64,000 nucleotides of DNA from a virus, in the IMG/VR virus record IMGVR_UViG_3300044827_000008, positions 1 to 64,000 of that record; one strand, given 5' to 3'. Position numbers: made by a program. Of the stretch, positions 54,001-60,000 are shown piece after piece; positions within the stretch are counted from its first letter, which is position 1, and each line of letters opens with the position of its first letter.

Positions 54001-57000
54001 CTCTTCGTCGTCGTCGTCACCGCCGTCGTCCATTGTCTCGGCCCTCTTCGTGGTCGTCTCGTTCTCGGCGGGGCGCTTGAACCCTGGCTTGAACTGCTTC
54101 GCGTAACGCGCAAAGGATTCGGGACGCAGGAACTTGTGGTCGGTGTCCTTCGGCCCGTAGGTGCCGATGACGTAAACGTACATGCCGACGAGGTCGTCGG
54201 TGTCGAACGCTTCGAGGGTGGCCTTGTCCGGGTCAGTCTCGAACATTGCGTCGAGCAGCTTGCGCAGGTTCGACTTCTCGTTGATGCTCGCGCTGGGGTT
54301 GAACCAAACTTTGGTTCCCTCCGTCTCTTCCTCGATCGACTTGAAGACGATCTTGATCACGTCGCGCGTCTCGTTCTCGTCGATCTTGCCGTCCTTGTTC
54401 TCGCGACCATAGAACGGATTGTCCTCGGTCACGAACTCCGACTCGACGATCTTGCAGAGGACGGGTGTCTTCGTCGGAAGTTCCGGGAAATCAGCCCCCT
54501 CTTTGTATTGCAGTTTCGGCATCGTTCAGTTCACCTCTATGACTTCTATTGATGCCGGGTCAGGGTCAGCATCATGCCCCGCCGTCTCACTCAACGGCTT
54601 GTCGCTGTGACTCCAGATTACGTCCTCAACATGACGTGAATCGTGGAAAATCAATCCGCCCTTGCACACGCGGCACGTCGCGTGCGTCTCAGTCTTTGCC
54701 ATGCTTACCTCCCGGCCTTCAAGTATGTGATCACGTCTGCCGCGTCGAGGTACAGGCCCGCAAGGACCTTGTTCATCGTGCGTGCGCTGACCCGCTTCCC
54801 GGCAAGGAACCGACGCAACGTACGCCCGCTGACTCCGCACTGCGCCGCCACAGCGGCCCGCGTCAACCCCCAGTGCTCGACGGCGAGCACCACGCGATCG
54901 GTATTGACGCGGACCGCACGTCCGCCAAGTAGGTACTCCGTCATGCTTTAGGCAGTCGCGCCTCCAACCGGCTGAACTCCGATCTTGTGCTCGCCCGCGA
55001 ACTTCGTGACGCTCGCCGTCACGTCCGCCGGGTCGAGTGGCGTGAGGTTCAGTTCCAAGCTGTCTGCGAGCTTCGTGATCTGTACCGCTGCGACGATCTC
55101 GCCGTTGTCGAGGGCGATCTTCCGCGCCATCGAGAGGCTTACGCTCTGGAGAAAGGCTCCGGCGTCGAAGAGGCTGACGAGCACGTTCTCACCGTCCCTC
55201 TCTCGCAGGGGCGCGGTGTCGAGGATGTTGCCGTCCGCGTCAAGCTTCCACGCTTCGGCCTTCAGCGTGCCCTTATCGATGGTGTTGCCGTCGATCGTGA
55301 CCTGAAACCGCATCGATACGGCCACCGGTTTCGTCTGCTCCTGCTCGTCTGTCATGGTTGATCCCCCTGGTGAATTTGCGATGGTTCTCCACCGCTGTCC
55401 TCCATGGTAGCGGGGGGTAGGGGCGTCACCGGCCTGAAGTTTTCAGGCGGGTGCGTGGTAAAAACCGGGCTATGCTGGAGGCAGGCGGAACTGACGTGGT
55501 GAGGGCTGGCCGTTCGAGTGCGCGGGAAATCTGCGAGCAACACTCTAGGCCGGAATCCGAAAAGCCATGCTTTCGAGCCTTGAGCGCGGGGGTGGGGCAT
55601 TTGATAGGTGCCTCGCCTCCGTTGCGCTGGAAATAGGGTGGAGGCCCTCAAAATGGCTGTTTTTTGCCCCTCGTTCCCCATTTCGGGCATGCCGAAAGAC
55701 GCCGCGCGAGGTACTTTGGGGCCGCAGATGGCAGCTACTAAAGGTTGCTTGGCTACGGCCTGAAGATTCTTGCTAAGGGAGGTTAGTTTTGCCCGCCTTC
55801 GGGGCATAATATAGGTAGGCAACAAGTCAATACCGACTCAGCAGGGAGGGCGAATCCCCCTTAGCTACGAATGTGCCGTTGGGCCGACCCCAGGCACGCC
55901 GCGCGACGCGTAGCGACAAGGAGATCGACTGGTACGCATACCGGATAGCCCAAGCCGAGGCACCGTCACACCGTGCCCACAAACTGAGAAATCAGGAGAA
56001 TAGAGATGGCCGGGCGCTTCCGCTCGGCCCTCTCGATGGGCGATGGTCGGGCAGCGACCGACCGCAGTACCCGTGTGAAGGGTCAGCGCGAGTCCGTTCG
56101 AGTCGGACAAAGGGCGCAGGGACGCAGGCTGACACACGGCGAAGGACAGGCGGGGAGGTGTTCACGACACCCCATCGTCCATCGAGAGAAAGGAAGCTAT
56201 TCGGTACACGAGAGGTTGAGGCGTTCCGTGTCGCACGTCGATGCGGCCCGCCTCCCTCGATCGAGCTTGTAGTCGGCTTCTCCCGAAGAACTGAAGGCCC
56301 TTCGGATGCTGGAGCCGACTCGCTCGGTCGGGGGTCGTGAACTCACCCGGTGGCATTGAGGCCGAAGAAATACTAGGCCCCGCGCGGGACAGCACGACTC
56401 TCTCAGCCCCATACATATGTAAGGAGAGACGATGCCGAACACCAACTACACCGCCGGAACGTTCCGTGTTAAGGCTCGCAGAATGAATTACAGCCTCGAC
56501 GCATACGAAGAGGTTGAGGGTTTTGTCGAGATCGAGATCGACATCGATCGGCTCGTCCGCGACCTCGGGCCTCGCGCGGTTCTGAGTATTGGTGGCCTCG
56601 CGCAAGAGGCGGGCGGCGCGATCAGGGTCAAGCGGGTTGCGGACATCGCGGGGAGTCGGTAGGAACGAAGAGAGCGGCCCACTTCGGGCCGTTCCCCTCG
56701 ATGGACGGTCAACGCACGAGTCGCCCTACGGGAGGCGCTGAAGACGTGCGGCACTGTCCGTCGATGGTACGTCCGACCGTACATGTGTAAGGGAGAACCG
56801 AACATGGCGTCATACAAGCACTGCAACGATCCGAAGTGCCAGCGCGAGATCGAGGAGTCGATCTTCAACACGGCGACGGCACACGCGCTCGGATGCAAGT
56901 TGCGTCGGTCGCTCGCAGCCAAGGACGCGTTCGCGGCCAAGTCGAAGCGACAGGAGCGCGGACGTAAGGCAGCCGCAACGCGGGCCGCGCGGAAGCTCGC

Positions 57001-60000
57001 CAGTCAACCGCTCGCCGTGGACTACGGCACGATGGGCCTTGACGAGGTCGAGAAGATGTCCGACGCGGAGTACGCAGCCGCACTCATAGAGGAGGGTTCG
57101 TGAGCCGCAACATCTACCGCGTCAAGACAAAGTACGGCATCGAGGTCACTCGTCAGTCGGATCGCCCGTACAAGTTCGTCATCATCTCGTTCGGTCAATC
57201 GGAAGCGTTCCTTCGCAGCCGACACGAGGCCAAAGCCAAGTACCTCAACGAACTCGCGGCACGCTACCGCATCGCTGAGCGTACCGGCACCGACCCGAAG
57301 TACCCGCAGGACGGCGGACGGTTCGTCGCGGAGGACTATCGCAGATGGGCCGAGGACACCGAGGCCAAGGCCGCGATACCGTTCGTGGCTGAGGAAGCCA
57401 AGCTCATGGTGCATGGCTGGTCGATGAGCATGAAGGGTGCGATGGCAATGGAGCGGGAGGCGGTGAAGTACCGCTATCTCAACATCGAAGTTCTACCAGT
57501 CGCGTGAGAGAGAGCGGCCCGCGCCGCTCCTCTCGATGGGCGAATCATCCAGACCGTCGCAAGGCGGCAGGGTACAGCGAGCCAACAGCAGGCCCACGCA
57601 CGATGATTCGCCCGTCGAGAGTCCAGTCAACCAGATAGAAGAGGAGAGTCGATGGCAGACTACGCGTTCATCAAGGTTCGGAAGATCGGAGAGAAGCGGT
57701 TCAACTTTCTCCGACCGGATGGCGGCGAGACTCACCTCCGCGTTCACGCGGCGATGGTGCCCGTCGAGAAGCTCGTGTCCCGCCTTGCGATGGTGCGCAA
57801 GGACAACCCCGGCTTTGAGTTCAAGGCCACTACTAAGGGAGGCTTCGTTGGCAGCTAAAAACCTACGCGGCAAGACGGTCGGCGGCTACCCGGTCGATAA
57901 CTCGCAGGCATACGAGGTGTGGCAGGCGGGCACGTGGACGTGGAACGTGCTCAAGCACAACCAGTCCACCGAAGCGGAGTTGAAGAACCCGTTCGCGATC
58001 GTGTGCTGCAACGTCGTCACTCCGATGTGTCCCGACGGGGAGATCGGAGACACCTACCTCTACGAGATCATGCACAGCGCGCGGATGATCGCGTTCCGCG
58101 ACGTGACGGACGGCGTGCTCGACAAGCAGCAGACTCTCGTCGGCGTCGCGCCGGACGGGATACGCGGCGACAAGGTCGATTGCTCGGCGCTTTACACGAA
58201 GCTCCAGGCAGCACTTCGGGCGTAAGCGAGAGCGGCCCCGTGGCCGCTCCGCTCGCGAGGAGGCCCCGGCAGGGGATGTAACGCAGCATTGTTCGGGGGC
58301 ACCCGGCGTGGCTGCGGTGAAAGGGTCGGCCCGGCGGGAACGGTGAGAGGCTGCGCGCAAGCCCAGTGCCGTCACCCGAGGCGTTTGCGAGCGGGTTCGA
58401 GGCCCGCACCGCCCCTCCTCGCGAGCGTTCGGTTTCCCGTCCACTTGAAAGAGGAGAGCGCCCATGCTTGATGTCTCGCGGTTCGTGTCCATCGAAATCC
58501 CGATCGCACCCGACTGGGAGGAACGGGTGCGTGGCAGTCAGGCCGTGCTCGGGTACTTCAAGTACCCGGAGGGCGTCGGCCTGAACGGCTGGTACATCGA
58601 CTTCGATCTCGACTCGCTGCCCCGCTACTTCGGCCCGTACGGCACTGCCGTCGAGGCCACGGAGAAGGCAGAGTCACTCGGCATGACCGTCCGTGTCAAC
58701 CCCGCCCGCCTGTACATCGACGAGCGGTTCGAGGAGGACGGCACCTAGCGTCCGACAGCGGCCCGGTTTATATCACGCTGGATATATTCCGGGTCGGATG
58801 GAACCCGCGCCCGGTCTGAAGTCCGGGGCACCGAAAAGTTCAGGCCGATGGCCCTGCTAATAGGGCTTACAATGGAGATGCAAATGGAGAATATCGAGGG
58901 TCAAGACGTGGCGGAAGGCCCCGCCGAATACCGCATCCCGTCGTCCCGCTGGCCCACCTTCCAAGAGAAGTTGGGTAAGCTCGCGAAGCGCGCGAACAAG
59001 CTCGGTGCCGGAACGATCGGGTTCGAGATCGTCCGTGTCGAGCACATGAAATTGATCCGGTTCGACGCCATGTCGTTCCTGCCGGACGAGCCTCCCGCCG
59101 ACCGGCTCGTGCCGATCGACGCGAAGGTCGAGCGCGCGTTCGTCGTCGGCTACGAGGACATCAACGTCGTGATCGTCACGGGCGACCGCCCCAAGCTCAA
59201 CGGCTGGCGGTTCGTCGGCACCCTCCAGTCCCTCAAGGACGACGAGGGCGTCATCATCAACATCCTGCGAAACATCCCCGGCGAGACAATCCCCGCGAAG
59301 TACCGTGACGCGGAGCAGTGGTGCGACCAGTGCAAGACCCGCCGGTTCCGCATCGACACCTACATCGTCATGCACGACGACGGTCGGACGGCGCAAGTCG
59401 GCTCCGACTGCCTGAAGGACTTCACCGGGCACGCATCGCCCGACACCATCGCCCGCTTCTGCGAGTACCTCATCGAGCTTGACGGCATGATAAGCGACGG
59501 CGAGCGCGGCGGGTTCGGTGGTGGTGAGGCCGACTCACTCTCGACCCTATGGATCGTGACCCTGGCATCCGCGCGTGTACGGGTGAAGGGTTGGATGTCG
59601 CGCTCGAAGGCGCGCGAGATCGCGGGCCAGTCCAGCGACTACGAGGCCCGCAAGGACACTGACCCGACCGTCACCGGCCACCTGCGGACCGTGACGGCTA
59701 CCGCCGACGCCGTGAGCGACTACCTCGATCGCAAGCTTGGCGACAAGCGGATGCGCGAGGATGGTGTCGCGATCACGGAGGCCGACTCCCTGGAGGCCGA
59801 GGCCGCCATCGAGTGGATTCGGTCGATGGATCGGAACGAGCTACAGCGCGGCGACAACGACTACCTCTGGAACCTCTACGCGGCGTGCGCCAACGGCAAC
59901 ATGACGTGGCGCATGCTCGGAATCGTCTGCTCCCTCGTCGCCGCCTACCAGCGCGCGATGGGCCGCGAGCAGGAGCGCAAGGAACGCGCGTCCAAGTGGG

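Follow-up and report, generated by a model that had tools for sequence, protein, structure and literature searches.

What is the function of the recurrent stem structures that separate the small genes of a soil phage? The question is raised by an 88,347-bp phage genome with 59% G+C and direct terminal repeats, recovered from soil metagenomes (IMG/VR record IMGVR_UViG_3300044827_000008), whose first 64 kb (the window) were analysed. Its minus-strand genes run to position 55355 and are followed by 1.07 kb of non-coding DNA and, from 56432, by a plus-strand operon of small genes. Five related units (U1 to U5) lie in this region, built on a small GC-rich hairpin (P1), of which U2 has the 5' half only, and a long stem (P2) that encloses an interior not shared between copies. 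The evidence supports the view that they are plus-strand RNA elements of one family, placed between cistrons and mostly directly after stop codons. Our preferred reading, to which we give an even chance, is that the units are tRNA-derived punctuation marks in a polycistronic message, addressed to RNA-processing enzymes of the host.

All five pairs of complementary arms proposed in an earlier note on this DNA were recovered by complementarity or in minimum-energy folds. The arms at 56030-56046/56172-56188 (17 nt) and 57530-57549/57602-57621 (20 nt) are 94% and 95% complementary, respectively, those at 58250-58263/58414-58427 (14 nt) are 100% complementary, and the pairs 56255-56266/56322-56333 and 56698-56708/56754-56764 are seen in minimum-energy folds. 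All five units fold below dinucleotide shuffles (z -3.0 to -7.3; individual values in Table 1), and a separate shuffle run gave z of -2.8 to -7.0 for the units versus -0.1 to -1.1 for six neighbouring coding controls. Additional members of the family were identified through a downstream gene encoding a 517-aa protein, which has homologues in metagenomes at 49-73% identity and, among phage GenBank records, distant ones only (≤31% identity). The 5.9-kb metagenome contig L001, which encodes the homologue with 73% identity, carries three more units (LA, LB and LC) with the same P1, the same base of P2 and unrelated interiors.

Compared over six units, P2 contains nine G-U or U-G cells, two non-pairs (C-U and A-G) and no A-C cell, and its pairing is therefore that of plus-strand RNA, as the earlier note had argued from the G-U mismatches. 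Pairing in P2 reaches 97.8%, both sides have changed in four of its pairs, and double changes account for 11 cells in seven pairs; this level of pairing or covariation was reached in none of 500 shuffles, and slid controls were only 36-54% paired. RNAalifold independently predicts both P1 and P2 and gives no consensus structure for the interior. Fold energies of the two strands are mixed, the plus strand being better for U3 (-57.1 vs -49.8) and U2 (-48.5 vs -42.5). The expectation that the arms differ between units and stay complementary holds for the outer and inner ends of the stem, which vary with compensation, and for the whole of U5, whose closing stem has many double changes compared with U4 and is still paired; the central ~11 bp, in contrast, are nearly invariant.

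P1 starts 4-10 nt past a stop codon, and P2 adjoins it without a linker in all seven units with a complete P1. The motif GAGAGCGGCC has exactly three plus-strand copies in the window (56670, 57510 and 58228), each 2-7 nt past a stop codon, which bears out the proposal that units begin with a hairpin just beyond the preceding gene; a fourth plus-strand copy lies outside the window, at genome position 80040. Ribosome-binding sites follow the units at a distance of 30-37 nt. U1 and LB, which are not preceded by a long gene, may still follow tiny reading frames: a 25-codon frame with a CTG start and an AAGGAGA motif (55929-56003, plus strand) ends at the UAG before U1, and an 8-codon ATG frame with its own GGAGG (L001:926-952, plus strand) ends at the UAG before LB.

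The common frame of the family reads CYCUCGAU, GGRCGNN, interior, NNCGYCC, R73 (A or G) and UCGAGRG, with U at position -1, GG at +1/+2 and UCG standing where a tRNA gene would have CCA. The long stem is best described as two helices in continuation, a putative 7-bp acceptor-type stem (GGRCGNN/NNCGYCC) and, outside it, an 8-bp helix of leader with trailer. P2 measures 12-21 bp in total, and the helix from its base to the junction or T loop reaches ~20 bp in U4, LA and LC. Sequence invariance peaks at the acceptor border (U-1, G+1, G+2, C71, C72, R73 and U74).

A covariance model of the frame (R1) was built from U1, U3, U4, LA, LB and LC. Searched against 213 kb, it recovered only these six units at 90-112 bits, with the U5 hairpin and U2 at the lower scores given in Table 1; a match of 14.6 bits at 24712-24865 falls within coding sequence and was attributed to chance. 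Structural conservation in a relative is provided by the three units of L001. When L001 is aligned with the window genome, the 36-39-nt frame matches at 85-92% identity and coding parts at 71-83%, and nothing else aligns. Because the frame is more similar than the flanking genes and the inserts do not align, selection appears to act on the frame and not on the insert.

Searches for further members covered several collections. Phage GenBank records gave no DNA match in near or distant mode, and four protein queries and two DNA patterns retrieved no family member from IMG/VR, where seven stretches with R1 scores of only 8-17 bits were rejected as lacking P1 and containing uncompensated mismatches. 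Among 13 loci of a metagenome scan, units were found on L001 only; in the distant loci L002-L013 the matching slot contains no tRNA, and the ten tRNAs of L007 lie on the other strand. A protein scan of a genome contig collection gave no match, and a pattern scan of the same collection returned at least 120 stretches; among the matches listed, only two had a 3' arm with at most one mismatch and, lacking both P1 and the fold, these were regarded as chance.

The link to tRNA is provided primarily by LC, whose inner part (L001 2580-2657) matches the Rfam tRNA family RF00005 with 34.5 bits (E 8.8e-5 in a permissive scan; gathering cut-off 29 bits). The fold contains an acceptor stem, a D arm with GG, a variable loop and a T arm; its anticodon region is broken, consisting of 20 nt without a 5-bp stem. 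The acceptor stem of LC is formed by the inner 7 bp of P2, and the outer 8 bp are the leader-trailer pairing. Arms of the remaining units are unrelated, and no unit has an anticodon arm. Three arms on the stem, and with them a cloverleaf topology, are found in U1 and LA, and in U4 and LA exactly 12 bp separate G+1 from the junction, the length of an acceptor stem plus a T stem. T-arm-like hairpins (5 bp and UUCGAGN) are present in U1 and U5; genome-wide (88 kb, both strands) there are 12 such hairpins, eight of them in true tRNAs. In LC the T arm is directly next to the stem; in U5 it is close by.

Aligned to the eight tRNAs of the phage, LC agrees best with tRNA-Ala, with which it has the D arm and the first five anticodon-stem bases in common. 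R1 also matches tRNA-Ala together with its flanks, at 25.8 bits (E 3e-6) in a search of 3.5 kb and 22.7 bits (E 0.001) in one of 213 kb. The tRNA-Ala leader, CUCUUGGU, agrees with the LA leader in seven of eight letters and pairs with ACCAGUGG, and GUCGAGGG comes next in the trailer. An outward extension of leader-trailer pairing from -1/73 occurs in three of the eight phage tRNAs (Ala 7 bp, Gln 9 bp, Asn 14 bp), the chance of at least 7 bp between random flanks being 0.005. It is at most 7 bp in the five tRNAs with encoded CCA; tRNA-Gln and tRNA-Asn resemble the units in having no encoded CCA. The units probably descend from a tRNA-Ala-like gene together with its flanks. Two further observations concern the tRNA genes themselves. 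A single direct repeat of the tRNA-Ala 3' end (CCUGUCGCCUCCACCAGUGGU) lies 26 nt downstream of it (31955-32010, minus strand) and looks like a recombination scar or the duplication of an integration site. A tRNA with a CAU anticodon at 32092-32163 (minus strand; Rfam tRNA 52.7 bits) is not among the ARAGORN calls.

The earlier note had also suggested that a purine run upstream of the long stem competes for the CUC bases, and folding predicts such a competition in all seven units with the small hairpin. In the intact unit, the leader pairs downstream with a probability of 0.77-1.0 at 33 of 35 leader positions, the exceptions being two positions of U3 (0.59 and 0.39). In a fragment ending at -1, it pairs instead with the upstream purine run (7/7 units having P1), and the predicted switched hairpin has 11-15 bp and a 1-3-nt tail and starts at or beside the stop codon. 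Purine run, leader and trailer are mutually complementary in 7/7 units. Between U4 and U5, compensating differences are seen at the leader base that comes right after the bulged C, at its partner in the trailer and at its partner upstream, a single event that is suggestive only.

From the anatomy, its conservation in a second phage, the plus-strand pairing, the tRNA link and the predicted partner switch we infer the following course, in which each cleavage, the enzymes involved and the stabilizing effect are conditional. Each unit would combine P1 with a pre-tRNA-like body, the frame representing the unprocessed end of a CCA-less tRNA and the interior being free to vary. Host RNase P would cut at the U-1/G+1 border and a second endonuclease, RNase Z or another, after R73; a double-strand cut within the leader-trailer helix may precede these cuts or take their place. 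Deprived of its trailer partner, the leader would fold onto the purine run upstream of P1 and leave the upstream message with an 11-15-bp end hairpin just past the stop codon, potentially shielding it from 3' exonucleases. The downstream message would begin ~30 nt before its ribosome-binding site, and the excised tRNA-like piece would be a by-product, although some units might yield a stable small RNA in this way. Of the earlier idea of processing cassettes, processing or punctuation is still the best functional guess, and the generic RNase III stems have given way to long stems with the end anatomy of a pre-tRNA.

Several points weigh against the punctuation reading. The tRNA link rests on the unit of one relative (LC) and on the apparent homology of the frame: the five units of the window gave no match to the Rfam tRNA model at E≤10, and ARAGORN calls none of them, nor LC. 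The T arm, which is normally used by bacterial RNase P, is absent from U3, U4 and LB. U4 folds slightly better as minus strand (-68.9) than as plus strand (-65.5). Within the searches made, the family is carried by two genomes only, and gene conversion among the copies could account for part of the sequence identity of the frame. A look for RNA runs covering the units listed none, and the three DNA runs compared consist of contigs, in which RNA ends do not appear. The inserts alone do not differ from shuffles in seven of eight units (z -1.2 to +0.8). Finally, pairing of the leader with the 3' end was reported to inhibit E. coli RNase P (Zhu 2022, PMC9433436), so the closed 8-bp helix should slow this enzyme and would suit a double-strand nuclease better.

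This inhibition makes RNase III, acting first or alone, a serious rival. If the units were plain RNase III sites, a reading that we judge unlikely and that is nonetheless the main competitor, the long stem, possibly stacked on P1, would be cut on both strands as in T7, and the likeness to tRNA would be a matter of ancestry only. The length of P2, with its ~20-bp helix in U4, LA and LC, would fit such sites, as would the direct abutment of P1 and P2, which could allow stacking, the poor quality of the closed helix as a substrate for RNase P and the unconstrained inserts, which are expected of a terminal loop; the partner switch would work equally well after an RNase III cut. However, this reading leaves unexplained why conservation is centred on the acceptor border and why the helix is common to true tRNAs of the same phage. 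Stems cut by E. coli RNase III are about 20 bp long, and those of U3 (12-14 bp) and U5 (14 bp) are short by comparison. A search of the phage genome for enzymes detected no RNase III gene and likewise no TROVE/Ro protein, CCA-adding enzyme or RNase Z-type metallo-beta-lactamase fold.

The earlier description of the inserts as hairpin-rich and structured did not hold: the insert of U2, a continuation of the U2 hairpin, is the sole one below shuffles (z -3.3), and no insert aligns between L001 and the window genome. As the inserts are neither conserved nor demonstrably structured, the proposed set of small RNAs is unproven. Searches with Rfam 15 over 52000-64000 gave only the two true tRNAs above the gathering score, and the six matches at E≤10 in 55350-58900 fall well short of the respective cut-offs. 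CRISPR direct-repeat families were absent from the list for the latter interval, giving no backing to a relation between inserts and CRISPR repeats; antitoxin mimics were not looked for by name. A hammerhead or other ribozyme was rejected for want of an Rfam match. A match to Twister-P5 at 58751-58826 (plus strand), covering two hairpins after the gene for a 94-aa protein, reached 19.4 bits against a cut-off of 37.6 (E 0.76) and is probably due to chance.

These results bear on two readings that give the inserts a role of their own. That the units are holders of trans-acting small RNAs, whose tRNA-scaffold frame releases and stabilizes a cargo such as decoys for tRNA-directed defences or regulators, is markedly improbable, with the cargo unconserved between the two phages, its z near zero and no Rfam family above cut-off in the stretch of the units; the T-loop modules of U1, U5 and LC and the combination of G3-U70 with A73 in U1 would agree with it. 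A weak hint in the same direction comes from one low-depth contig of a relative, in which the UUCGAGU loop of the U1 hairpin is kept and one stem pair is compensated. A related proposal, improbable in our view, regards the frame as a natural tRNA scaffold of tRNA-Ala-type origin, a portable holder that carves stable small RNAs from the mRNA while a leader switch like that of MALAT1 caps the message. In that case part of the cargoes would work in trans, one example being decoys of host enzymes or defences that recognize the elbow or the acceptor end of tRNA; U1 (cloverleaf topology, G3-U70, A73 and an internal T-loop hairpin) and U5 (T arm beside the closing stem) would be the candidates.

The same inserts, together with the D and T arms and broken anticodon arm of LC, the missing half of P1 in U2 and the occurrence in two genomes only, might indicate that an old tRNA island has rotted into decaying genes without present function, with frames alike as young or recombination-homogenized copies. 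We consider this improbable. Decay does not account for a frame with 85-92% identity in two phages that differ more in their flanking genes (71-83%) and have unalignable inserts, for pairing kept through double changes (11 cells in seven pairs) and throughout U5, for the complementarity of purine run, leader and trailer in 7/7 units, or for the regular placement 4-10 nt past stop codons.

The units also stand at the borders of gene modules. Genes shared by L001 and the window occur in a different order and have different neighbours, which fits a role at module borders. Taken further, the units would be recombination joints resembling those of T4-type phages, the ~40-nt frame, the only non-coding DNA that aligns, serving as a patch of homology for module swaps. 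As an explanation of the family this is very unlikely, since the G-U asymmetry and the compensatory changes point to selection on RNA; recombination is a possible side effect of any repeat and compatible with punctuation, and at the repeated frame it is plausible as such. Over 55000-62800 on the plus strand, no sigma-70-type promoter was detected, the consensus used being possibly not that of the host, and no U-tract terminator, P1 being followed by CUCUCGAUGG. The lack of both argues against terminators and against motifs of the PeSL type, which combine a promoter with a stem-loop (PMC4122927). An intrinsic terminator or attenuator was also rejected on the ground that P2 cannot stop P1 from forming. 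Mobile DNA palindromes (REP/RAYT, MITE and integron attC) were discarded as well: the genome search found no Y1 transposase and no tyrosine recombinase or integrase, the interior is unshared between copies, and the bias of nine G-U to no A-C cells argues against palindromes acting at the DNA level.

Table 1. Positions of the units, their parts and related tRNA genes in the window
Feature	Position	Strand	Description
U1 hairpin P1	56008..56029	+	GGCCGGGCG, CUUC loop, CGCUCGGCC; 4 nt past UAG (56001-56003); folds
U1 body, pre-tRNA-like	56030..56188	+	fold z -5.1; R1 90.6 bits
U1 leader	56030-56037	+	CUCUCGAU
U1 acceptor-type strands	56038-56044; 56174-56180	+	GGGCGAU; AUCGUCC; G3-U70
U1 interior	56045-56173	+	three arms, cloverleaf topology
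U1 insert, T-arm-like hairpin	56092..56108	+	GUCCG UUCGAGU CGGAC
U1 A73; trailer	56181; 56182-56188	+	trailer UCGAGAG
U2, degenerate member	56254..56334	+	fold z -3.5; R1 10.2 bits, E=1 (weak)
U2 leader; its partner	56254-56261; 56327-56334	+	CCCUCGAU; GUCGGGGG
U2 inner part		+	CGAGC/GCUCG and long hairpin in place of acceptor-type part; 3' half of P1 absent
U3 hairpin P1	56672..56694	+	9 nt past stop (56660-56662) of 76-aa gene
U3 body	56695..56767	+	fold z -4.8; R1 90.9 bits
U3 leader; 5' acceptor-type strand	56695-56702; 56703-56709	+	CCCUCGAU; GGACGGU; single-arm insert
U3 3' acceptor-type strand; G73; trailer	56753-56759; 56760; 56761-56767	+	ACUGUCC; G73; UCGAUGG
U4 hairpin P1	57512..57529	+	4 nt past stop (57505-57507) of 135-aa gene
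U4 body	57530..57621	+	fold z -7.3; R1 94.5 bits
U4 leader; insert	57530-57537; 57550-57601	+	CUCUCGAU; two-hairpin insert
U4 12-bp helix from G+1	57538-57549; 57602-57613	+	GGGCGAAUCAUC with 3' partner
U4 G73; trailer	57614; 57615-57621	+	trailer UCGAGAG
U5 hairpin P1	58230..58249	+	4 nt past stop (58223-58225) of 125-aa gene; R1 partial match 18.6 bits
U5 body	58250..58427	+	fold z -3.0; diverged 14-bp closing stem, 58250-58263 with 58414-58427
U5 insert, T-arm-like hairpin	58391-58407	+	GCGGG UUCGAGG CCCGC near 3' strand; insert 150 nt, multi-branch
P1-like hairpin after stop of 94-aa gene	58753..58800	+	first 15 nt 87% identical to U5 start; no long stem of the family type
tRNA-Ala with flanks	31982..32094 (tRNA 31994-32066)	-	R1 match
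tRNA-Gln	29911-29983	-	no encoded CCA; leader-trailer extension 9 bp
tRNA-Asn	30177-30249	-	no encoded CCA; leader-trailer extension 14 bp

The minus-strand block encodes replication and RNA functions, namely an NrS-1-type primase-polymerase/helicase, RuvC, a sigma factor and an RNA ligase. The RNA ligase gene (49544-50422, minus strand; PF09414, E 1.3e-16) may matter for the repair of tRNA or tRNA-like RNA. The plus-strand operon ends close to two tRNA genes (62559-62713); the status of this arm as early, in the manner of T7, is an assumption. Neither the six small genes next to the units nor the 517-aa gene matched a Pfam family. With PHROGs, only the 135-aa gene among the six gave a match, a weak one (E 1.4e-4) to a family of unknown function, and the 517-aa gene matched only families of unknown function; a coding explanation was among the ideas rejected.

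A 16-nt motif with a palindromic core, TACATRTGTAAGGRGA, lies on the plus strand at 56412-56427 and 56780-56795, over the ribosome-binding sites of the first and second genes of the operon. The window contains no other copy (0.01 expected), and the motif may be a translational operator. Outside the window, 0.9 kb of non-coding DNA at genome positions 79640-80560 (L014:15640-16560) contains about ten copies of a ~90-nt unit with the words CCUUACC-N-GUCUGAGUC and GUGACUCGAAUACG-N-GCC, which could be an iteron origin or another RNA array.

If the proposed cuts are real, the phage separates and stabilizes its messages using worn-down copies of its own tRNA genes. This would explain the tRNA genes and look-alikes scattered among the small genes of many phages, add a compact module of stop codon, hairpin and cut site to the means of controlling message ends, and provide a handle on the maturation of unprocessed tRNAs with paired flanks in soil bacteria.

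Among known systems, the early RNase III sites of T7, situated in the leader and between cistrons, are single irregular hairpins of ~50-60 nt whose processing leaves a hairpin at the upstream 3' end. The phage units resemble them as structured sites between cistrons for which processing is proposed to leave a 3' hairpin upstream. Acceptor-type anatomy, a separate upstream hairpin and a large variable insert are features of the units and not of the T7 sites. With bona fide tRNAs the units share the 7-bp acceptor-type stem beginning with GG, a purine at position 73, U-1 and, in LC, the D and T arms; unlike tRNAs, they have no anticodon arm and no encoded CCA. The PeSL of T4-type phages, composites of an early promoter and a stem-loop (Comeau, Arbiol and Krisch 2014, PMC4122927), are likewise short repeated stem-loop motifs between small variable genes at the borders of swapped modules. 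Unlike PeSL, the units have no detected promoter, and their conserved part, an RNA helix, contains G-U pairs and shows compensatory changes.

The closest counterparts are found outside phages. In plant mitochondria, t-elements and acceptor-stem-like stem-loops are regarded as signals for RNase P and RNase Z (Forner 2007, PMC1920247); like the units, they are non-decoding tRNA-like folds or acceptor-type stems at message ends, and U1, U3, U4, LA, LB and LC have the corresponding 7-bp GGRCGNN/NNCGYCC stem at message borders. The borders of t-elements coincide with mapped RNA ends, whereas the phage units are known from sequence alone, and t-elements are described as organellar, scattered and of independent origins (PMC1920247), whereas the units form one sequence family in one operon. 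Furthermore, the units differ from t-elements in their upstream hairpin (half of one in U2) and the 8-bp leader-trailer helix. For these last two features MALAT1, with its ENE triple helix and mascRNA, offers a parallel: the leader-trailer helix at mascRNA is reported to be needed for maturation by RNase P, after which the leader joins the upstream stabilizing element (Torabi 2021, PMC8457004). Both systems place a tRNA-like element downstream of a stabilizing structure, with a leader switch that protects, or in the phage is proposed to protect, the new 3' end. MALAT1 is eukaryotic and nuclear, has a triple helix and is single-copy (PMC8457004), in contrast to the phage units with their hairpin and a switch predicted from folding only. 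A survey lists unnamed tRNA-like candidates in phages (PMC10690425), and our full-text literature search brought up no account of phage operons punctuated by tRNA-like elements. To the tRNA-like processing signals already known in organelles and eukaryotic nuclear RNAs, the present family adds the composite of hairpin, leader-trailer helix and predicted switch, and a direct link to the phage's own tRNA genes.

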